A DNA stretch of 64,000 bases from Pristiophorus japonicus. Its lineage: Eukaryota. Location: NCBI RefSeq assembly GCF_044704955.1, contig NC_091977.1, positions 249,178,001-249,242,000 of the forward strand, written 5' to 3'. Below are positions 7,501 to 50,128 of the stretch, piece after piece. Position 1 is the stretch's first letter; each line of letters begins with the position of its first letter. Under the pieces are notes generated by a model, which worked only from the letters and a program-made list of their open reading frames with translations, was not told where the DNA came from and ran no database searches. The translations under genes were made by a program, and so were the position numbers.

Positions 7501-7900
7501 AGGATGCATTTATTTGTAACACCTAAAGCTCTGATTGGGCCCCCTTGATGACAAGTCCTTATTGCTGATTGGTCCCCATGGAGGATAAGACACACACAGC
7601 AGTTTATTTTTGCAAAGTGTAATTCAAGCCATTCTGACTGCCGACTCCAGACAGATCAGAGCTCACTTAGAACAGACAGGGCTCACTCTCACGGGTTGCG
7701 ACTGTCATGTATTCTACTGTCATTGTAATCCATGAATAAACTGACCGAAGCTGTATACCGTGAGAACACTGACCACTAGATGGCGAACTTGTGGGAGACA
7801 CTCCTAACCTGGACTTTCAGGTATAAAAGGAGAAGCTCCACCCACCTTCATCACTTCAGTGCTGGAATAAAGGTTACTGGTCACAGAGTGACCTTCTCTC

Positions 7901-8060
7901 AACTGTCACAGGATGGGAGAGTGGAGAGCACCAGTTCCAACTGTCACAGGACTAGAGAGTGGAGAGCACCAGTTCAAACTGTCGCAGGAGAGAGTGGAGA
8001 GCACCAGTTCCAACTGTCACAGGAGAGAGTGGAGAGCACCAGTTCAAACTGTCACAGGAG
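7901..8060 (+). repeat. 35-38 bp tandem repeat AACTGTCACAGGA(nnn)GAGAGTGGAGAGCACCAGTTC(C/A), 4 full units plus a partial
   Basis: Directly visible; 2 full units plus a partial in copy 2 (about 42515-42609). Confidence 0.95.
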
Positions 8061-8910
8061 CATCCAGTCGTGCCCCGGTAACTGCCCCCAAAGGAAGTGG
8101 AGTGTGGGAAATTGCACTCCGCTTCCATTGAGGGGTGGTAAGGCCAATTCTGCGGCGGGAGCAGGACTTCCACGATGGGGGCTAAAATTCCCTGCCCCAG
8201 AAGGTTACCGCCTCCAAGATGGGAGCCTGTGCGGGGAGGCAGAGGGAAGTTGAGGGGAGACGGGGGGGGGGGGGGGGAAGTAGTGGAGGTGGGGGGTGGG
8301 GGGCGGAGAAACCCAGGACGGGGGACAGGAGGGGCCACATTGCAGCGGAGGTCTGGGGGGGGCGACGTGTGTTGGGGGCTCTGTGCCTCGGTGCGGGGAA
8401 TGTTCAGAGTGGGGTGGACGGGTTGACTGTGCAGATGGTGGTTGGTGAATGTGGTGTGGTTGGTGTCGCGGGGGCGTGGCTCCGGGATGGCCGGGGCTGG
8501 GGGCTCGACATCCGGGGGTGTTTGGCAATTGGGAAGGATTCTGACGGGACGGGGTGGATTGGGTGCGGGGGGAGTGTTCCCGGTGTTGGGTGGGTCCGGA
8601 GCCGGTGGGGGGGGCCACGCTCTTGGGATGGGGGGTGGGCTGTTGGGGCTGGGATAGTGAGAGACTTCTTCACTCAGGGAGTTGTTGGCCTGTGGGGTTC
8701 CCTGCCGCGGAGAGTTGTTGATGCCAGTTCATTGGATGTGTTCGGGAGGGAGTTGAATGTGGTCCATGCGGCTGGGGGTGTCGGGGGATGTGGAGGGGGC
8801 GTGGGGGGGAAGGTGCTGGGGTGGGTGATCAGCCATGATCTTGTTGAATGGCGGTGCAGGCTCGAAGGGCCAAATGGCCTACTCCTGCACCTATTTTCTA
8901 TGTTTCTATG
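7903..8910 (+). mobile_element. Composite non-autonomous retroelement: VNTR + MITE-like segment + internally deleted, A->G hypermutated CR1 (copy 1, inserted in Gypsy 5' LTR)
   Basis: Absent from the 3' LTR; ends in CR1 tail CTATTTTCTATGTTTCTATG; aligns to in-window CR1 copies with mostly A->G changes; second copy at 41679-42609. Confidence 0.85.
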
Positions 8911-11900
8911 GGCCTCGTGTGCATGTATACTGTATAGTAAGGACACATTATTGGCGACGAGAAACTTGGATTTGAACCACGCGAGCATGGCAACTAGCAG
9001 TACAGACGAGAGGTACTGTGTTGGTGATGACTGGGACGATTTTATTGAGAGACTACAACAAAGTTTCGTCACGAAGGAATGGCTGGGACAGGATTCGGCC
9101 GACAAACGCAGGGCTCATCTCCTGACGGTTTGTGGATTCAGGACATACTCCCTGATGAAGAACCTTCTAGCGCCAGAGAAGCTGACAGACAAGACTTTTG
9201 AAGAGCTCAGTAAGTTGATCGGGGAACACTTTAAACTGGCGAGCAGCATGTACATGGCGAGACATCGGTTTTACACACACCGGCGGCGAGAAGGGCAAAG
9301 CGTTCCAGACTTCGTGGCAGACCTCCGGCGACTGGCGAGCCTATGTAAGTTTCCAGATGCATGCAGAGCGGAGATTCTGCGAGACTTCTTTATTGAGGGC
9401 ATTGGGCAGGCTGGGGTTTTCAGGAAACTGATTGAGACCAAAGACTTGACCCTGGAAACGGCGGCTTTGATGACCCAGACATTTATTTCAGGGGAGGAAG
9501 AGACCAGAATGATGTTTGACAAAAATCTTGGTTTAAATGCAGCAAATGGACAGGGAGTCAACATTGTTAACGCGGCACACAGTTCTCCAGGCAGACAGGG
9601 GCAATCAGATATGCCCGAGCATGTAGTCGAACCCAAAGGGGGAATTCAAGAGACAATGGCTAGCTGAACAGCGATTCATGCCATCGCAAGGGACAATGCG
9701 GCCAGTAATGGAGCCATCAACACCTGTCAATGATGCACTAAAGGACAGTTACAGAGACAGTCAGAGATGATCGACTGGTGATGGACCTTTTGTTTCCAAC
9801 AATGGCTCATGTTGGAGGTGTGGAGGCAAACACAAAGCCAGAGCTTGCAGGTATCAGCAATATACCTGCAGAAACTGCAACATCAGCGGTCACTTGGCGC
9901 ATATGTGCAGGAAGCCTACTGCCAGGTTGATGTACGAGGAGGACGGGGATGATGTAAGCCCTACGACGCCAAATGGACACTGGGGGAAATCGTTGGAAGC
10001 TGAAGTTCAGTGAGTTCATACACCAGGATGCCACCGATAATGATGAAAGTGCTCCTCAATGGCATCCCAGTATCAATGGAGCTAGACACGGGGGCCAGCC
10101 TGTCCCTGATGAGTATCAAACATTTCGACAAGTTGTGGGCGTCCAAGGCCAGGAGGCCAAAATTATTGCCAATTGACGCACAGCTACAGACATATGCAAA
10201 GGAAATAATTCCAGTGCTCAGCAGCGCCACGGTAGTCGTGACCCACAAAGATTCGGAGAACAGATTGCCATTCTGGATTGTCCCGGGGGACGGTCCTGCA
10301 CTGCTGCGGAGGAGTTGGCTGTCTGTCATCAACTGGAAATGGGGCAATGTCAATGCAATTTCTTCTGTGGAGCGAGCATCGTGCTCACAGGTCCTGGACA
10401 AATTTGACTCACTATTTCAACCCGGCATTGGCACTTTCATGGGGACTGAGGTAATGATTCACATAAACCCGGACGCCAGGCCAGTGCATCACAAGGCCAG
10501 AGCGGTGCTGTATGTGATGCGGGAAAAGATAGAAGGCGAATTGGACCGCCTGCTGAGGGAAGGCATCATCTCGCCAGTCGAATTTAGTGACTGGGTGAAC
10601 CCGATCGTACCGGTGCTGAAGGCGGGGATGAGTCGGTCAGGATATGTGGTGATTACAAGGCCACCATCAATCGGGTGTCACTCCAGGACCAGTACTCACT
10701 ACCGAGAGCGGAGGACCTCTTTGCGATGCTATCCGGTGGCAAACTTTTTTCAAAATTGGACTTGACCTCAGCTTACATGACCCAGGAGCTGGCGATTGAG
10801 TCGAAGAAGCTGACCACCATCACGACACACAAGGGGTTGTTTGAGTACAACAGATGTCCGTTTGGAATTCACTCAGCCGCCGCGATTTTTCAACGAAATA
10901 TGGAAAGCCTCCTCAAGTCGATTCCAAGGACGGTGGTTTTTCAAGACAACATCCTCATCACGGGTTGTGATACTGAAGAACACCTCCGCAACCTGGAGGA
11001 GGTGCTACGCAGACTGGACCGGGTAGGTGTGCGACTGAAAAAGGTGAAGTGCATCTTCCTAGCTCCAGAGGTAGAATTCCTGGGGATGAGGGTAGCAGCA
11101 AACGGGATCAGACCTACTGCGTCCAAAACAGAAGCGATCCAGAGAGCACCCAGACCCTGTAACACGACGGAGCTGCATGCGTTCCTGAGGCTCCTGAACT
11201 ATTTTGGTAACTTTCTTCCCAAATTGAGCAGCTGTTAGAGCCACTACAAGCACTCCTACGCAAAGGTCGCGAATGGGTCTGGGGGGGCAGCCAGGAAAGG
11301 GCTTTTGATAGAGCACAAAATTTGTTCTGCTCCAACAATCTGTTAACACAATATGCCCCATGTAAGAAACTTGTTTTAACGTGTGACGCGTCGTCCTATG
11401 GGGTCGGGTGTGTGTTGCAGCATGTTAATGCCAAGGGTCAGTTACAGCCTGTAGCTTATGCCTCCAGAAGTCTGTCCCAGGCAGAATGGGGCTACGGGAT
11501 GGTAGAAAAGGAAGCGCTTGCATGTGTATATGCTGTAAAAAAAAAAAATGCACCAGTACCCGTTTGGCAGGAAATTTGAGCTGGAGACAGATCACAAACC
11601 CCCAACGTCCCTTTTGGCCGACAACAAGGCCATAAATGCAAATGCAAATGCATCGGCCCGCACACAGAGGTGGGCACTCATGTTAGCCACCTATGACTAT
11701 ACAATTCGGCACAGGCTGGGCACTGAAAACTGCACCAATGCACTCAGCAGGCTCCCACTAGCCACCACCGAGGGAGCAACCGAGCATGCTGCTGAGATGG
11801 TCATGGCTGTTGAAGCTTTCAAAAGCGAAGGCTCACCCGTGACAGCCCGTCAGATTAAAGTCTGAACAAATAAAGACCCGCTACTGTCTTTAGTCAAGAA

Positions 11901-13973
11901 ATGTGTCCTGAATGGGGACTGGGTAGCCACGTACGTGGCATGCCCTGAGGAATTGAAACCATTTCACAGGCGCAAGGATGAACTCTCGATTCAGGTCAAT
12001 TGCCTACTATGGGGAAACCGAGTAGTCATGCCCCAGATGGGCAGAGAGATGTTCATCAGAGAACTCCACAATGAGTACCCGGGCATTGTCATGATGAAGG
12101 CAATTGCCAGGTCACACGTTTGGTGGCTAGGGAGAGATGCAGACCTGGAACTTTGTGTTCGCATGTCCAACACGTGTGCCCAGCTGGGCAATGCGCTCAG
12201 GGAAGCCCCCCTTAGCCCCTGGTCCTGGCCCGCCAAGACATGGTCACACATCCATGTGGACTACGCAGGTCCTTACATGGGAAAAATGTTTTTGGTTGTA
12301 GTAGACGCCTACTCCAAATGGATCGAGTGTGACATTCTCAATTCAAGCACATCCTCTGCCACGGTAGAGAGTCTATGGACAATGTTCGTCGCCCATGGTC
12401 TACCGGAAGTCTTGGTCAGCAACAATGGCCCGTGCTTTACAAGCATTGAATTCCAGGACGTCATGACAGGAAATATCTAACCATATCAGAACGGCACCGT
12501 TCAAGCCGGCCTCAAATGGCCAGGCGGAACGAGCCGTGCAGATAATCAAACAGGGGATGCTCAGAATCCAAGGGGGTTCCCTACAAAGCCGCTTATCACG
12601 CCTTCTGTTAGCCATTGGATGCCGACCACACTCGCTCACATGGGTCCCACCCACAGAGCTGTTAATGAAAAGGACGCTCAAAACCAGGTTATCCCTTATA
12701 CACCACCATGAAAGAAATTGTTGAGAGCAGGCGCCAGTCACAATGTGACGACCATGACAGGAATGCGAGGGCGCGATGTTTTGATGTCAATGACCCTGTC
12801 TTTGTCCTCAACTATGCTGCAGGGCCTAAATGGCTTGCAGGCACCGTGATTGCCAAAGAGGGGAATAGGATTCTGGTAAACACGTGGATCAAACAAAAGG
12901 GAGGTTCAGCAACCCCACAGAAGAAGCAGAGGAAGAACACGATGTAGAGTTCACTCCTCCACAGGTGACCGAACACCAGAACCAAGAGGAGCAGAGTCCA
13001 GTCACGCTGGGCAGTCCGGACAGGCCTGAGGCACCGCAAACAGCAGACACTCAGGCCAGCGACCAACAACCGGAGCCCCAACTCAGGTGCTCTACAAGGG
13101 AGCGTAAACCACCAGAGAGACTTAACCTGTGATCCCAATAAGACTTTGCGGGGGGGGGGGGGAGGTGATGTCATGTATTCTCCTGTCATTGTAATCCATG
13201 TATAAACTGACTTAAGTTGTACACCGTGAGAACACTGACCGCTAGCTGGTGAACTTGTGGGAGACACGCCTAACCTGGACTTTCAGGTATAAAAGGGGAA
13301 GCTCCACCCACCTTCATCACTTCAGTGCTGGAATAAAGGTTACTGGTCACAGAGTGACCTTCTTTCAAGTACGGGCCTCGTGTGCATTTATACTGCATAG
13401 TAAGGACACATTGAAGACTTTCTCCCACCCCCACCAAAGAAGTTCCTGCCCTCACACCACCCCCCCTTTCCTGACCTTCCCCCCCACCCAAGTGCCTAAC
13501 CTCCCCCCAGCACAGGTTCCTGACTTCTCCCCCACCCTTTCGCCCTCCCCCATCTCTCTCTCTCTCTCTCTCTCTGTCTCCCCCTCCCCCCCTCTCTCCG
13601 TCTCCCCCCTTCTCTCTCTCCATCTGCAACTCTTGCTCTCTCTCTCATATTAGTGTCCCCAGCTCACCAGCTCGATGATAATAAGGCCCGAGGCCCAATA
13701 TCGGGTACGCTTCGGTCCTCACCATTCAGGCGCATGAATCATTCCTGGCGCCCCGCTTGCCCAAAAATGGCCAAGTATCTAGGCCAAGATTTTTAACATA
13801 TTATAAGACTGTATCAATATGACCACAATGGTGTCATTCAAAGTATATACAGCCCTTTCTGAGGAAGCTGCAAGAGGGTAAGTTAATTACCAGAAAGGAT
13901 ATTTACGAGAGTCAATAATATGCAGCTAATAATCATGGACTTCCTTTAAAATTATTGTCTTTAGATTGCTTAC

Positions 13974-29082: not shown

Positions 29083-32000
29083 TGTTATGTCTCAAATAAA
29101 GCAATGTGACTGAGTACTGTAGACTTGAGTAAGTGTGACTTTAGTCCCTTTATTCTGACTCCAGAGTGCCTGCACAGCATGGGAGGCCCGCTTATATGCA
29201 GTGCTCCCAAGTTACGCTGGGATCCTTTGGGACTCCAACAGATGCGCCCTCTGGTGGCAGTAGAATGCTGGTTACAAGGTGTTGCATACATAACATCACT
29301 CTCCCCCGCACTCCCCCACACCAAAATCAATAGTTCACTTATTTACAGGATGAGACGATCTGGGGCTTTCTATTCCCTAGTCGATCGTCTCGGTACAAAC
29401 ATAGGTGCAGGTGATTTGGTTGGGCCTTCGCTGGGCTGCTGGGGATGATGAGTTTAGCTTCGTGGTCAACCGTGATGTTGGTTGCCATTTGTGTGTGTAT
29501 CGGAGGGTCGAAGTTGGTGGTGTCCTCTTCAGGTTGCTCGTGGCTGTCAGTGAATCGCAGTTTGGTTTGGTCCAAATGCTTTCTGCAAGTTAATCCATTT
29601 GCAAGTTTGACCTCAAACACCCTACTCCCTTCTTTGGCTATGACAGTGCCAGCAAGCCATTTGGGACCATGACCATAGTTGAGTACAAATACAGGGTCAT
29701 TGACTTCAATATCGCATGACAAATTTGCGCGATCATAGAAACATAGAAAATAGGTGCAGGAGTAGGCCATTCGGCCCTTCGAGCCTGCACCACCATTCAA
29801 TAAGATCATGGCTGATCATTCACCTCAGTACCTCTTTCCTGCTTTCTCTCCATACCCCTTGATCCCTTTAGCCGTAAGGGCTGTATCTCACTCCCCCTTA
29901 AATATATCCAATGAACTGGCATCAACAACTCTCTGCGGTAGGGAATTCCACAGGTTAACAACTCTCTGAGTGAAGAAGTTTCTCCTCATCTCAGTCCTAA
30001 ATGGCTTACCCCTTATCCTAAGACTATGTCCCCTGGTTCTCGACTTCCCCAACATCGGGAACATTCTTCCTGCATCTAACCTGTCCAATCCCGTCAGAAT
30101 TGTATATGTTTCTATGAGATCCCCTCTCATCCTTCTAAACTCCAGTGAACACAGGCCCAGTCGATCCAGTCTCTCCTCATGTCAGTCCTGCCATCCCGGG
30201 AATCAGTCTGGTAAACCTTCGCTGCACTCCCTCAATAGCAAGAACGTCCTTCCTCAGATTAGGAGACCAAAACTGAACACAATATTCCAGATGAGGCCTC
30301 ATTAAGGCCCTGTACAACTGCAGTAAGATCTCCCTGCCCCTACACTCAAATCCCCTAGCTATGAAGGCCAACATACCATTTGCCTTCTTCACCGCCTGCT
30401 GAACCTGCATGCCAACTTTCAATGACTGATGTACCATGACACCCAGGCCTCACTGCACCTCCCCTTTTCCTAATCTTCCGCCATTCAGATAATATTCTGC
30501 CCTCCAGTTTTTGCCCCCAAAGTGGATAACCTCATATTTAACCACATTATACTGCATCTGCGATGTGTTTGCTCACTCACCTAACCTATCCAAGTCCTCT
30601 GCAGCCTTTTAGCGTCATCCTCACAGCTCTCACTGCCACCCAGCTTAGTGTCATCTGCAAACTTGGAGAAATTACACTCAATTCCCTCATCCAAATCATT
30701 AATGTACATTGTAAATAGCTGGGGTCCCAGCACTGAGCCCTGCGGTACCCCATTAGTCACTGCCTGCCATTCTGAAAAGGACCCGTTTATCCCGACTCTC
30801 TGCTTTCTGTCTGCCAACCAGTTCTCTATCCACATCAGTACATTACCCCCTATACCATGTGCTTTCATTTTGCACACCAATCTCTTGTGTGGGACCTTGT
30901 CAAAAGCCTTTTGAAAGTCCAAATACACCACATCCACTGGTTCTCTAATGTTACATGCTTTGTTGATGCCGCCTGCCCTCGACATGATCATGGAGATCAG
31001 GGTGGACTAGAGAGAGCCTTGCTTTGAGTGCCCTTTTCACGAGCAGTTCGGCAGGGGGATCCCCGGTGAGCGAGTGCGGTAGCTGAGCAGGACTCAGGAC
31101 AGGCAGGTCTGCAGGGAGCCTTCCGACACGCGTTTCAAGCTTTGCTTGATGCTTGATGGTTCTGCCTGGCTGTTGTTGTAGGCTTGAATGGGGCAGATGT
31201 GACGTGCTTGATCCCATTGTGGGTCATGAATTCCTTGAATTCAGCGCTGGTGAAGCACGGCCCAATGTCGCTGATAAGGCAAACATGGCTCGTAGGCTTT
31301 CGATGGTGGCAGTGGATGTGCTTACAGACATTATTACACACTCAATCCATTTTAAATAAGCATCCACAACAACCAAAAACATTTTGCCTAGAAACGGGCC
31401 AGCAAAGTCAATGTGGATCCTAGACCACGATTTGGAGGGCCATGACCACAAACTTAGCGGTGCCTCCCTGGGTGCATTGCTCAGTCGAGGGCAAGTGTTG
31501 CATTGGCACACGCAAGACTCCAAATCTGAGTCGCTGTCGGGCCACCACACATGGGATCTGGCTATAGCTTTCATCATTACTATGCCTGGGTGGGTACTGT
31601 GTAGGTTGCGTATGAGTAATTCCCTGCCTTTCTTAGGCAAAACCACGCGATTACCCCACAAAAGACAGTCCGCCTGTATGGACATTTTGTCTTTGCGCCA
31701 CTGGAACGGCTTGATCTCATCATGCATCTCCGCTGGACCAGCTCCCATGGAGGACACAGTTTTTTTTTTTTACAAGGGACAGTAAAGGATTCTGGCTGGT
31801 CCAGGTCCTGATCTAGCGGGCCGTAATGGGTGACTTTTCGTTTTCAAATGCATCCATCACCAAGAACAAGTCTGCAGGCTGTGCCATTTCCAATCCGGTG
31901 GTGGGCAATGGTAGCTGACTGAGAGCATCAGCACAGTTCTCTGTGCCTGGCCTGTGGCGAATTACATAGTTATATGCAGACAACGTGAGCGCCCATCTTT

Positions 32001-40887: not shown

Positions 40888-42760
40888 TGGCCTAGAAATT
40901 CAGCTGCTCATCACCTATTTTCTGGTCGCTAAACAGCCTCCGAAGCTTTCAATACAGCAAGTATAGTGTACACATTCCTGGCTGGCAAAGATAGAAAAAG
41001 GTAGATGCACTCATGATAGGAGCACACATGGGGATCAGTTTAACAATGGATGGAGGCAAGATGATTCTTGCTCAGAAATACCGAGAAAGACTGTCCAGCA
41101 AATCTGTAAGTTTACATTGTGATTGGAGCTGGGTGTGCAAGATCCATGCGTTGGGAATGGTTCCAAATGCATCTTTCTAAGGTCATTTTCTTAATTCTAG
41201 GCTACCAAGTATGGTTGGGAAGGCTGATATAAATTAAGTAATTAGAAATAAGTTAGGAGAAACAATGAGTAATTCTTATGCCACTCTGAAAAGATAAAAT
41301 GGACTATAACACTTTTTACACTGTTTAACTCTGTTTAGAGCATGAGGAACATCTATTGCCCATCTATCTCGAAATCCCAGATGAGGTACATGTACTCCTT
41401 TGGAATAAATCTTTCCTCCGGTTCTTTCCAGGTACCACGGAGGACCTGTCAGTCTGCAGCAGATCATTGCACAAAACAGGTGACTGATACCTTAACTGCA
41501 ACAGCAAGCAACATCACTGTCCCCTTAGACAACAGGAAAGAAGAAGATTGAGCACGAGGTTTCCATCGAGTAACAGGATTCCAAAAATCCAGGCTGTCAC
41601 TGCTGTGCTACAGATGGCTTTCCAATTGCCAGTCACTTCAAGACTGACTGCATGCTTTTAGTACATGAGCAGCCCACACATAGAAACATAGAAACATAGA
41701 AAATAGGTGCAGGAGTAGGCCATTTGGCCCCTCGAGCCTGCACCGCCATTCAACAAGATCATGGCTGATCACCCACCCCAGCACCTCCCCCCCACACCCA
41801 CCGACCCCCCCAGCCACAAGGACCACATCCAACTCCCTCCCGAACACATCCAAAGAACTGGCATCAGCAACTCTCCACGGCAGGGAACCCCACAGGCCAA
41901 CAACTCCCCGAGTGATGAAGTCTCTCACAATCCCAGCCCCAAACAGCCCACCCCCCATTCCAAGAGCGTGCCCCCCCCACCCGGCTCCAGACCCACCCAA
42001 CACCGGGAACACTTCCCCCCGCACCCAACCTGCCCCGTCCCGTCAGAATCCTTCCCAAATGCCGAACATCCCCGGATGTCGAGCCCCCAGCCCCGGCCAC
42101 CCCAGAGCCACGCCCCCGCGATGCCAACCACACCACATCCACCAACCGCCATCTGCTCAGTCAACCCGTTCATCCCACTCTGAACATTCCCCGCACCGAG
42201 GCACGAGCCCCCAGGCCCGCCCCTCCAACACACTTCGCGCCCCCCCAGACCTCCGCTGCAATGTGGCCCCTCCTGTCCCCGGCCCTAGGTTTCTCCGCCC
42301 CCCCACCTCCACCACTCTCCCCTCCATCCCCCTCAGCCTCCCCGCACAGGCTCCCATCTTGGGGGCGGTAACCTTCTGGGGACAGGAATTTTAGCCCCCA
42401 GCGTGGAAGTCCTGCTCCCGCCGCAGAATTGGCCTTACCACCCCTCAATGGAAGCAGAGTGCAATTTCCCACACTCCACTTCCTTTGGGGGCAGTTACCA
42501 GGGCATGACTGGATGCTCCTGCGACAGTTGGAACTGGTGCTCTCCACTCTCTCGTCCTGTGACAGTTGGAACTGGTGCTCTCCACTCTCCAGTCCTGTGA
42601 CAGTTTGAATATATATATACGGGTTGTGAAATTCTCCACATCAGCCACCGTGTCTTGGAAGCTGCGAGACACATTCCAATGATTCCAACCATCTCTCATG
42701 CACCAAAAGCTCAGAGGATGTGAACGGAAGTGAGCTCATTCTCCAGCCAGCAGTAGTATT
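40888..42760 (+). mobile_element. Old Harbinger transposase remnant hosting composite element copy 2
   Basis: GGCCTAGAAATT start; LSSGSFQ...CQSAADHCTKQVTD fragment. Confidence 0.5.
41679..42609 (-). mobile_element. Composite VNTR/MITE/A->G hypermutated CR1 element (copy 2)
   Basis: Reverse complement is colinear with 7903-8910, including the GGGAAGGA|TTCTGACGGG deletion junction and tail. Confidence 0.88.
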
Positions 42761-46474: not shown

Positions 46475-46795
46475 TTTGTTCCTGGCGCAGAGTTTCACTC
46501 AACAGAAACTGAATAGCTTCTGTCTTGTTCCTTAATTCCTTAATAGATTTTGCCTTTGAATCCTCAAGTACATCATTCCTTTCTAGTACTGTAACAGTCT
46601 CTTTGATCAATACTGCAACCTTCCCTATCTTTTCTGAATACATTGTAGTCAAGAATATTAAGTTCCCATTCCTCCCTATGTTTGAGCCAGGCCTCTGTTA
46701 TTGACACGACAGCATAATCTCATGTGGCTACTTGTGACTGCAGCTCACCAGCCTTATTACCACGCTCCAAGCATTACACACATGCACACTAAACC

Positions 46796-48773
46796 CATAG
46801 AAACATACAAAATATGTACAGGAGTACGCCATTCGGCCCTTCGAGCCTGCACCGCCATTCAATGAGTTCATGGCTGAACATGCAACTTCAGTACCCCGTT
46901 CCTGCTTTCTCGCCATACCCCTTGATCCTCCGAGTAGCAAGGACTACGTCTAACTCCTTTTTTTAATATATTTAGTGAATTGGCCTCAACAACTTCCTGT
47001 GGTAGAGAATTCCACAGGTCCACCATTCTCTGGGTGAAGAAGTTTCTCCTCATCTCGGTCCTAAATAGCTTACCCCTTATCCTTAGACTGTGACCCCTGG
47101 TTCTGGACTTCCCCAACATTGGGAACATTCTTCCTGCATCTAACCTGTCTCAACCCATCAGAATTTTAAACATTTCAATGAGATCCCCTCTCATTCTTCT
47201 GAACTCCAGTGAATACAAGCCCAGTTGATCCAGTTTTGCTTGATAAGTCAGTCCCGCCATCCCGGGAATCAGTCTGGTGAACCTTCGCTGCACTCCCTCA
47301 ATAGCAAGAACGTCCTTCCTCAAGTTAGGAGACCAAAACTGTACACAATACTCCAGGTGTGGCCTCACCAAGGCCCTGTACAACTGTAGTAATACCTCCC
47401 TGCCACTGTACTCAAATCCCCTCGCTATGAAGGCAAAGATACCATTTGCTTTCTTAACCGCCTGCTGTACCTGCATGCCAACCTTCAATGACTGATGTAC
47501 CATGACACCCAGGTCTCTTTGCACCTCCCCTTTTCCTAATCTGTCACCATTCCGATAATAGTCTGACTCTCTGTTTTTACCACCAAAGTGGATAACCTCA
47601 CATTTATCCACATTATACTTCATCTGCCATGCATTTGCCCACTCACCTAACCTATCCAAGTCAATCTGCAGCCTCACAGCATCCTCCTCGCAGCTCACAA
47701 TGCCACCCAACTTAGTGTCATCCGTAAATTTGGAGATACTACATTTAATCCCCTCGTCTAAATCATTAATGTACAATGAAAACAGCTGGGGCCCCAGCAC
47801 AGAATCTTGCGGTACCCCACTAGTCACTGCCTGCCATTCTGAAAAGTCCCCATTTACTCCTACTCTTTGCTTCCTGCCTGCCAACCAGTTCTCAATCCAC
47901 GTCAGCACACTACCCCCAATCCCATATGCTTTAATTTTGCACACTAATCTCTTGTGTGGGATTTTGTCGAAAGCCTTCTGAAAGTCCAAATACACCACAT
48001 CAACTGGTTCTCCCTTGTCCACTCTACTGGAAATATCCTCAAAAAATTCCAGAAGATTTGTCAAGCATGATTTCCCTTTCACAAATCCATGCTGACTTGG
48101 ACCTATCATGTCACCTCTTTCCAAATGCGCTGCTATGACATCCTTAATAATTGATTCCATCAATTTCCCCACTACTGATGTCAGGCTGACCGGTCTATAA
48201 TTTCCTGCTTTCTCTTTCCCCCCTTTTTTAAAAAGTGGGGTTACATTGGCTACCCTCCACTCCATAGGAACTGATCCAGAGTCTATGGAATGTTGGAAAA
48301 TGTATATGCTATTTCCAAGGCCACCTCCTTAAGTACTCTGGGATGCAGTCCATCAGGCCCTGGGGATTTATCGGCCTTCAATCCCATCAGTTTCCCCAAC
48401 ACAATTTCCCGACTAATAAGGATTTCGCTCAGTTCCTCCTTCTTACTAGACTCTCTGACCCCTTTTATATCCGGAACGTTGTTTGTGTCCTCCTTGGTGA
48501 ATACCGAACCAAAGTACTTGTTCAATTGGTCTGCCATTTCTTTGTTCCCAGATATGACTTCCCCTGATTCTGACTACAGGGGACCTACGTTTGTCTTTAC
48601 TAACCTTTTTCTCTTTACATGTCTATAGAAGCTTTTGCAGTCCATTTTAATGTTCCCTGCAAGCTTCTTTTCGTACTCTATTTTCCCTGCTCTAATCAAA
48701 CCCTTTGTCCTCCTTTGCTGAGTTCTAAATTTCTCCCAGTCCCCGGGTTCGCTGCTATTTCTGGCCAATTTGT
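46796..48773 (-). mobile_element. CR1 LINE 3' half, relatively young
   Basis: 371-aa open RT stretch at 47150-48265; 3' tail at about 46796. Confidence 0.92.
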
Positions 48774-50128
48774 ACAAACCGGACGGTCTGCACCAAGGCA
48801 GGACCGGAACCAATGTCCTCGGGGTTATGTTTGCTAGTGCTGTTGGGGAGGAGTTAAACTAATATGGCAGGGGGATGGGAACCAATGCAGGGAGATAGAG
48901 GAAAACAAAAAGGAGACAAAAGCAAAAGACAGAAAGGAAATGTGTAAAAGTGGAGGGCAGAGAAACCCAAGGCAAAAAACAAAAAGGGCCACTGAATGTA
49001 AAGGGGCTGCAGGAGGGGTCAAAACTAAAAATTATGGTTTAAAAACTAGTATTAAAACACTCTACCTAAACGCATGCAGCATTCGAAATAAAGTAAATGA
49101 GTTGACGGCACAAATCATTACAAATGGGTATGATTTGGTGGCCATTACAGAAACGTGATTGCAGGGTGACCAAGACTGAATTAAACATACATGGGTATCT
49201 GACGATTCGGAAAGATAGACAAGAAAGGAAAGGAAGTGGGGTAGCTCTGTTAATAAAGGATGATATCAGGGCCGTTGTGAGAGACGATATTGGATCTAAT
49301 GAACAAAATGTTGAATCATTGTGGGTGGAGATTAGAGATAGTAAGGGGAAAAAGTCACTGGTGGGCATAGTTTATAGGCCCCCAAATAATAACTTCACGG
49401 TGGGGCGGGCAATAATCAAGGGAAATAATGGAGGCATGTGAAAAAGGAACGGCAGTAATCATGGGGGATTTTAACCTACTTATCGATTGGTCAAATTAAA
49501 TCGCACGGGGTAGCCTAGAGGAGGAATTCATAGAATGCATATGGGATTGTTTCTTAGAACAGTATGTTACAGAACCTACAAGGGAGCAAGCTATCTTAGA
49601 TCTGGTCCTGTGTAATGAGACAGGAATAATAAACAATCTCCTAGTAAAAGATCCTCTTGGAATGAGTGATCACAGTATGGTTGAATTTGTAATACAGATT
49701 GAGGGTGAGGAAGTAGTGTCTCAAACGAGCATACTATGCTTAAACAAAGGGGACTACAGTGGGATGAGGGCAGAGTTGGCTAAAGTAGACTGGAAACACA
49801 GACTAAACGGTGGGACAATTGAGGAACAGTGGAGGACTTTTAAGGAGCTCTTTCATAGTGCTCAATAAAAATATATTCCAGTGAAAAAGAAGTGCGGTAA
49901 GAGAAGGGATAACCAGCCGGGGATAACCAAGGAAATAAAGGAGAGTATCAAATTAAAAACCAATGCGTATAAGATGGCCAAGGTTAGTGGGAAAATCGAA
50001 GATTGGGAAAATTTTAAACGACAGCAAAGGATAACTAAGAAAGCAATAAAGAAAGGAAAGATAGATTACGAAGGTAAACTTGCGCAAAACATAAAAACAG
50101 ATAGTAAAAGCTTTTACCGATATATAAA
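48774..50128 (+). mobile_element. CR1 LINE 5' part (ORF1 end plus endonuclease domain), head-to-head with the previous fragment
   Basis: LYLNACSIRNK, AITET, VYRPPN, MGDFN and SDH endonuclease motifs. Confidence 0.88.

Follow-up and report, generated by a model that had tools for sequence, protein, structure and literature searches.

The window, a 64,000-nt stretch of DNA from the shark Pristiophorus japonicus, holds on its plus strand a degraded Gypsy-like LTR retrotransposon (7703-13410) in which both LTRs are present and remnants of protease, RT, RNase H and integrase lie in separate frames. Its 5' LTR is split by a composite, non-coding element (the focal copy), in which a truncated minisatellite and a hairpin-forming head precede two pieces of a CR1 LINE. 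As the focal copy splits only one of the two LTRs, it was inserted later than the Gypsy-like element. Within its CR1 part many adenines of the parent sequence are replaced by guanine (these sites are called edits below), and across 8201-8800 the proportion of A falls to 9-19% while that of G climbs to about 50%. The earlier note on this DNA had described 8218-8910 as one edited CR1 sequence; the stretch is indeed edited CR1, but it consists of two CR1 pieces joined at 8539/8540 (Table 1).

Table 1. Features of the focal copy, its insertion site and the related sequences in the window.
Feature	Position	Strand	Remarks
5' part of the 5' LTR of the Gypsy-like LTR retrotransposon (host site split by the element)	7703..7902	+	188/200 columns identical to the unsplit 3' LTR (13169-13410)
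Minisatellite of 37/38-bp units, 5'-truncated	7903..8056	+	up to 5.3 kb in other copies
Head of ~160 bp, non-CR1, apparently unedited; strong predicted hairpin with core stem 8093-8126	8057..8217	+	
Hyper-edited start of CR1 ORF2 (endonuclease N-terminus)	8218..8539	+	consensus A>G 84/128, T>C 0/54
Internal-deletion junction; ~2.4 kb lost (rest of endonuclease and RT), 2-nt microhomology	8539..8540	+	
Hyper-edited 3' end of CR1 ORF2 and start of 3' UTR	8540..8826	+	consensus A>G 57/80, T>C 0/63
Almost unedited 84-nt CR1 3' tail, predicted stem-loop, 8-nt terminal repeats	8827..8910	+	
Remainder of the split 5' LTR; few bases lost, no target-site duplication	8911..8947	+	
Second family copy in the window, 5'-truncated inside the minisatellite	41680..42609	-	G at 133/135 scored edit sites
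Ordinary unedited CR1 3' part, first comparator	29734..31000	-	

The predicted fold of the head is strong (z -4.55, with none of 200 shuffles equally stable). Its sole Rfam match was weak and far below the gathering score, a search for tRNA genes returned none, and no tRNA-, 5S- or 7SL-derived head of the kind that marks a Pol III SINE was found in the sequence recovered, the true 5' end of the element lying beyond the recovered array. A homologue of the head with 75% identity stands outside the family (L025, 129-216), which identifies the head as a piece of another palindromic repeat. On the 3' side of the deletion the final ~370 nt of CR1 are kept, and splicing was ruled out as the cause of the deletion, since GT-AG ends are absent on both strands. 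The family tail is identical to the consensus of its CR1 lineage in 82 of 84 columns, and its predicted terminal stem-loop is that of an ordinary CR1. The element has no reverse transcriptase or endonuclease of its own, the RT region being deleted and the open frame across the focal copy being without a Pfam match.

To compare the element with its proper relatives, a lineage-matched comparator was built from the nearest CR1 lineage (30 endonuclease segments and 10 3' segments). Over the 612 columns of the body, 141 of 208 adenines have become G in the family consensus (68%, of which a few may be lineage differences, as the parent is itself a consensus), and T>C is seen at 0 of 117 thymines. 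Only two further adenines had changed to other bases, G>A and C>T were confined to 2/192 and 4/95 sites, and substitutions other than A>G numbered only 13 in all. This spectrum speaks against both APOBEC editing, for which clusters of G>A on the sense strand are expected, and strand-symmetric GC-biased conversion, as the earlier note had argued. When 40 ordinary CR1 segments were aligned to the same consensuses, A>G was seen at 65/4865 sites (1.3%). The focal copy taken alone gave A>G at 135/216 and T>C at 1/141 sites (Fisher p 2e-39).

The earlier note had drawn its claim from 80 nt, in which 8663-8742 and the reverse complement of 29901-29980 show 10 mismatches, all of them A>G and together affecting 10 of 20 adenines, with T 4/4, A 3/4, C 1/5 and G 2/7 converted by 5' neighbour. 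Both counts were reproduced exactly, and alignment of 8218-8910 to the lineage consensus, with the complete spectrum and neighbour table, extended the strand-specific bias over the whole body, the tail being spared. T>C changes as frequent as A>G, one of the outcomes named in that note as contrary to its claim, did not occur. Conversion in the family depends on the 5' neighbour in the order T (29/29), A (54/69), C (29/42) and G (29/66; chi-square p 1e-7), and a dependence of this kind, again as claimed, recurs in five other edited copies described below; the 3'-neighbour bias of the family is not significant (p 0.37). All 31 TA dinucleotides of the parent are lost, and the consensus gains four G4-type motifs (parent 0) and has 37 CpGs against 10 in the parent. 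Among the 13 non-A>G changes of the body, 10 adjoin an edited A, and seven have the edit on their 3' side, as compared to 21% of sites; these are possibly reverse-transcriptase errors next to inosine. A stop-free frame of 493 codons (8186-9667, plus strand) spans the edited body and the tail and continues into gag-like sequence of the host LTR element. It has no Pfam match and is probably a by-product of the TA loss, with which most stops are gone.

By contrast with the body, only 1 of the 17 adenines in the final 84 nt is changed, against 12.3 expected from the body rates, and none of 200,000 simulations gave so low a number.

The ancestral state was assessed with a purine-degenerate motif, which has 15,686 matches in the genome. 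Among the 100 of these that were listed, 91 have A throughout the key sites, where no more than the CpG site varies, and 20 of those loci yielded a parent consensus with an open ORF2 frame of 1002 aa; a parent copy matches Pfam Exo_endo_phos (PF03372) in the region corresponding to 8218..8539. As the earlier note had held, the A state is therefore ancestral, and the possibility it had raised against itself, an intact, coding, G-rich parent subfamily, is not what is found: the parent that codes for protein is A-rich, and the G-rich family is non-coding. The CR1 at 48780-49300 in the window was rejected as a parent because it belongs to the wrong subfamily and shows many non-A>G differences, and the lineage-matched consensus was used in its stead. 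An unedited precursor joining head and CR1 gave 0 exact matches and was absent from the 30 copies checked; the unedited direct parent, the master locus and its promoter were looked for and not found.

The focal copy is not a lone fossil, as the earlier note's single stretch might imply, but one copy of a large dispersed family. A search of the genome (5.9 Gb) returned 2,791 candidates, and the 40 that were scored, the window itself excepted, were 87-91% identical to the focal copy. Genome-wide there are 843 exact matches to a 24-mer from the edited 5' piece and 1,196 to a 25-mer from the edited 3' piece, the latter being a minimum copy number; as this 25-mer is present in 19 of 30 copies in each of two sets found in other ways, we estimate ~1,900 copies. 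The copies share a common 3' end with 8-nt repeats and have variable 5' cut points and unrelated flanks, and their median non-CpG distance to the consensus is 2.2% (73 copies). Target-site duplications are not a rule, a raw match of 7-10 nt being seen in 10 of 49 copies. The arrays of the 13 long copies retrieved all run out into unrelated flanking sequence, with no common upstream end, and none of these copies is a master locus, since every one ends inside the minisatellite. The claim that a hyper-edited transcript was retrotransposed in the germline is supported for the family; the focal copy itself is a later retrocopy of an already edited master.

All copies record one editing history, and the edits were fixed before the family was amplified. 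In 80 distinct copies scored, at most 10 of 144 edit sites were in the A state. Outside CpG and sublineage sites, G>A occurred among the copies at 128/7745 edit sites and at 219/13214 ancestral G sites (p 1.0); for these rate counts 73 of 82 copies were used, with L198 (a short 3' copy misaligned into its flank), L214 and seven junction-pattern loci left out. Two sets of candidates for a partly edited subfamily were rejected: five loci with AA at two edit sites proved to be fully edited copies with scattered G>A, as did the 30 checked out of 52 loci that read A at the head junction. No intermediate subfamily was found in 110 copies scored. Among the copies, kept A>G (51/5444) exceeds T>C (51/9850) by 1.8-fold (p 0.003), and one edit site reads A in 25 of 73 copies while one kept A reads G in 13 of 73. 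This excess and these two polymorphic sites may leave room for slight later editing. At the 3' ends of three copies (L023, L027 and L029), some letters within the tail or directly preceding it are those of unedited or other CR1 subfamilies, and this points to an exchange of tails by template switching or conversion.

The G-rich element is not an assembly artefact. As the claim of the earlier note required, the G-rich body is present in independent sequencing contigs, from one DNA run and from four more (three samples under the same organism label and one under another); these four are of unrecorded kind and say nothing on expression. One contig, from the run under another organism label, spans 8373-8605 across the deletion junction.

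The deletion can also occur in unedited sequence, as a single locus (L214; G000:C18:40836870-40838580) shows. This locus is an unedited CR1 with ORF1 and the exact deletion junction of the family, and has A at 128 of 136 edit sites. As a candidate for the direct parent it is unproven: it lacks the head, carries the other allele at seven endonuclease and at least two 3'-segment lineage-polymorphic sites, and has only 2 of the 14 non-A>G changes of the family in common with it. Inverted CR1 pieces spanning both segments lie 0.3 and 3 kb away, and might bear on a long RNA duplex at the source locus only if L214 were the parent. An inverted family copy (G000:C18:40846211-40847085) lies 7.6 kb from L214, and at about one copy per 3 Mb this adjacency is unlikely to be due to chance. 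L214 may be a sibling of the founder, or may have acquired the deletion from its inverted neighbour.

Hypermutation of the same kind recurs in CR1 copies outside the family. A motif from the RT region, which the family lacks, has 35,976 unedited matches in the genome. With four fixed A>G changes the same motif matches five loci, as compared to 0.001 expected by chance, and the opposite-strand control, its T>C mirror, matches 0 loci genome-wide; this strand test rests on 5 vs 0 (p 0.03). Each of the five loci is a CR1 retrocopy that is truncated at the 5' end, measures 0.9-1.25 kb and has 57-145 A>G changes; their sets of edits differ, overlapping only partially in pairwise comparison. Pooled, they show A>G at 469/1107 and T>C at 24/955 sites. 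Conversion by 5' neighbour was T 129/186 (a rate slightly inflated by the four pattern-fixed sites), A 139/241, C 99/259 and G 102/394 (p 2e-26), and by 3' neighbour G 201/394, A 110/242, T 98/257 and C 60/187 (p 5e-5). A mild excess of A>T (23/1107) over T>A (9/955; p 0.048) is seen in the tracts, as expected if reverse transcriptase sometimes places A opposite inosine, which its pairing order allows.

The tails of these five copies are untouched (0 of 82 adenines changed), with 126-261 nt between the final clustered edit and the end, so that all six tracts, that of the family included, stop short of the CR1 tail. In the overlap with the family 3' piece their edits number 102, and 92 of these hit family-edited sites, which implies that the ranking of sites is shared and that the family has come close to saturating it. 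For four of the five, the 10 kb of sequence retrieved contains no inverted CR1, and a hairpin at the insertion site thus does not account for the tracts. In one copy (L305) edited and unedited blocks alternate, with 18/33, 8/26, 0/23, 5/21 and 14/32 adenines edited in successive 100-nt segments. Edited retrocopies amount to 1 in 7,000 at this one RT site, or, as a rough figure that allows for the four required edits, to ~1 in 1,700. In the 1.2 Mb examined, the 311 CR1 segments searched contained no further hyper-edited CR1 beyond the family, and none of 341 segments put through a three-letter scan was T>C-biased. One of the single edited copies (L302) is inserted in a different tandem repeat array.

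Three other explanations of these patterns were weighed, and all of them fit worse than ADAR editing. Errors of the reverse transcriptase on unmodified CR1 RNA, for example under dNTP imbalance, would likewise be specific to the sense strand, limited to single retrocopies and different in each of them. We nevertheless regard this as improbable: the changes are almost purely A>G with a 5' order of T>A>C>G, hypermutation by dNTP imbalance favours wobble pairs (G>A, U>C) over A:C pairs, and the alternating blocks of L305 fit duplex segments better than they fit a nucleotide pool. A process acting on DNA at or after insertion, either polymerase-eta-like mutagenesis at WA motifs or an adenine deaminase on single-stranded DNA or cDNA, appears more improbable again. 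The 5' preference for T and A is also the WA motif of polymerase eta, but from that polymerase A>T and A>C changes would be expected in large number, and here they make up 2/143; deamination of the cDNA strand would give T>C on the sense strand, and neither the mirror motif nor the scan of the 341 segments found a copy biased in that way; and every tract ends before the CR1 tail. A gradual enrichment in G over many rounds, through GC-biased conversion or selection (for G-quadruplexes or for escape from silencing), could draw on the gained G4-type motifs and CpGs and on the 1.8-fold excess of kept A>G, but it is already largely refuted, and scarcely credible, given the strand asymmetry of the changes, the lack of an intermediate subfamily in the 110 copies scored, the small number of other substitutions between body and parent lineage, and the same pattern in single copies that were never amplified.

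Taken together, these data support the reading that the elements form a non-autonomous CR1-derived family whose founder was likely an ADAR-edited CR1 RNA, likely reverse-transcribed into germline DNA by the CR1 ORF2p, to which we assign a probability of roughly 90%. It builds on the observed strand, spectrum, context, spared tail, retrocopy anatomy and recurrence, with the enzyme inferred from its signature. On the best reading, retrotransposition of edited CR1 RNA in the germline was a rare but repeated event, and one of its products became a non-autonomous master. Such a history would begin with a CR1 transcript that paired with antisense CR1, of which there are tens of thousands in the genome, and whose adenines were deaminated to inosine. 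About 50% conversion is the ceiling for one ADAR pass on a perfect duplex; the 68% seen in the family lies above it, and more than one round or an unusual exposure must be assumed. The 3' tail would have been kept unedited by protection or by selection, and ORF2p would have primed there and read I as G. The edited copy, internally deleted, would then have been placed behind a hairpin repeat and a long minisatellite, an anatomy that is seen directly and an order of events that is presumed. That the unit was multiplied is shown by its dispersed copies: at least 1,196 of them, cut at variable 5' points, share the CR1 tail and the edits. This multiplication presumably went through read-through transcription from within or upstream of the minisatellite and mobilisation in trans by CR1 proteins, to which the CR1 tail points. 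Other CR1 retrocopies were separately hypermutated in the same manner, at roughly 1 in 2,000 to 1 in 7,000 at the one RT site.

Published work bears on the first of these steps. The lack of G upstream of the edited A is the ADAR motif, and CR1 is described as an ADAR substrate because its 3' fragments form inverted pairs (PMC3197674, PMC5625713). CR1 RNA is reported to be hyper-edited in chicken, and hyper-editing to be abundant in the brain of the elephant shark (PMC5625713). As counter-evidence, the reporter assay described in PMC5224506 shows human L1 RNA without detectable ADAR1 editing. A broader view, towards which we lean only a little, is that ADAR acts as a heritable germline mutator of LINE sequence: edited CR1 RNAs would be written back repeatedly via their intact tails, and one of them, remade in a single burst that changed about a quarter of its bases, removed every TA and added CpGs and G-runs, would have escaped the control aimed at ordinary CR1 and founded a retroposon family that is maybe still transcribed.

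Several known systems resemble this family in part. SVA and LAVA are composite non-coding retroposons with a long variable VNTR of similar unit size that are moved by a LINE in trans, and retroprocessing fixes edited RNA in organelles. The shark family differs from SVA and LAVA in its parts and its driver (CR1, with a repeat tail in place of poly-A), and no homology is claimed. ADAR-edited repeat RNA, as described for Alu, chicken CR1 and elephant shark brain, shows the same dense A>G clusters with depletion of 5' G, but the edits in those descriptions reside in RNA only, whereas those of the shark family are in genomic DNA, inherited and amplified (PMC3197674, PMC5625713). In BLV proviruses, clusters of ADAR-type A>G in about 70 bp of the 3' LTR similarly represent RNA edits made permanent by reverse transcription and integration; these are somatic, short and retroviral, whereas here the tracts are germline, 600-1,200 nt long and in a non-LTR element, with a family arisen from one product (PMC8025556). 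APOBEC-edited LTR retroelements of vertebrate genomes are likewise germline-fixed products of a deaminase that hypermutated an intermediate, but their G>A changes come from C-to-U on cDNA of LTR elements, and ours are A>G on the RNA-sense strand of a LINE (PMC4866542, PMC2873906).

With regard to structure, the bipartite LINE derivatives (RIME, NARTc, Bov-A and the derivatives of Vingi-1_EE) also join two distant LINE parts, keep an intact 3' tail, encode no protein and are trans-mobilised, and the passages of that account on ORF-less bipartite forms list them only for RTE, Ingi, Vingi and R2 (PMC5786205). The present family, by contrast, derives from CR1, is hyper-edited, and begins its CR1 part at the start of ORF2 and not at the 5' end (5' UTR) of the parent, with a foreign minisatellite and hairpin repeat upstream. 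SINEs of sharks and rays such as HE1, paired with HER1, have CR1-like tails, and the tail of a CR1-type LINE is consistent in both cases with the 3' end being stringently recognised; unlike in HE1, no tRNA-derived head was found in the family, and its body is LINE coding sequence (PMC3747384). A non-autonomous CR1 derivative is therefore of a known general kind, and an origin by hyper-editing was not found in print: in the main text of the full-text literature, which takes in few subscription journals, no account came up of LINE copies with A>G hyper-editing fixed in the germline, nor of a family descended from such a copy.

A-to-I editing is regarded as a change of RNA that is not inherited, and its apparent footprint lies here in germline DNA from at least six separate events, one of which seeded a family of over a thousand copies. 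Such copies would record, with dates, how deaminases acted on retrotransposon RNA in germ cells; they would point to a way in which a new repeat family could originate in one step, and would serve as a natural map of how much of the CR1 3' end has to stay constant if the RNA is to be retrotransposed, in the family its last 70-85 nt. They would be missed by standard repeat annotation; a three-letter scan can seek them in any genome.

Two smaller observations concern ordinary CR1. Seven segments (L088, L065, L140, L262, L275, L139 and L043) contain weak G>A-biased windows with 8-10 changes per 100 nt, which may reflect CpG decay or subfamily differences. In the CR1 at 46790-49900 of the window, the endonuclease part is inverted with respect to the RT and 3' part, a 5'-inversion structure, and hairpins within its own RNA are possible only where these parts overlap.
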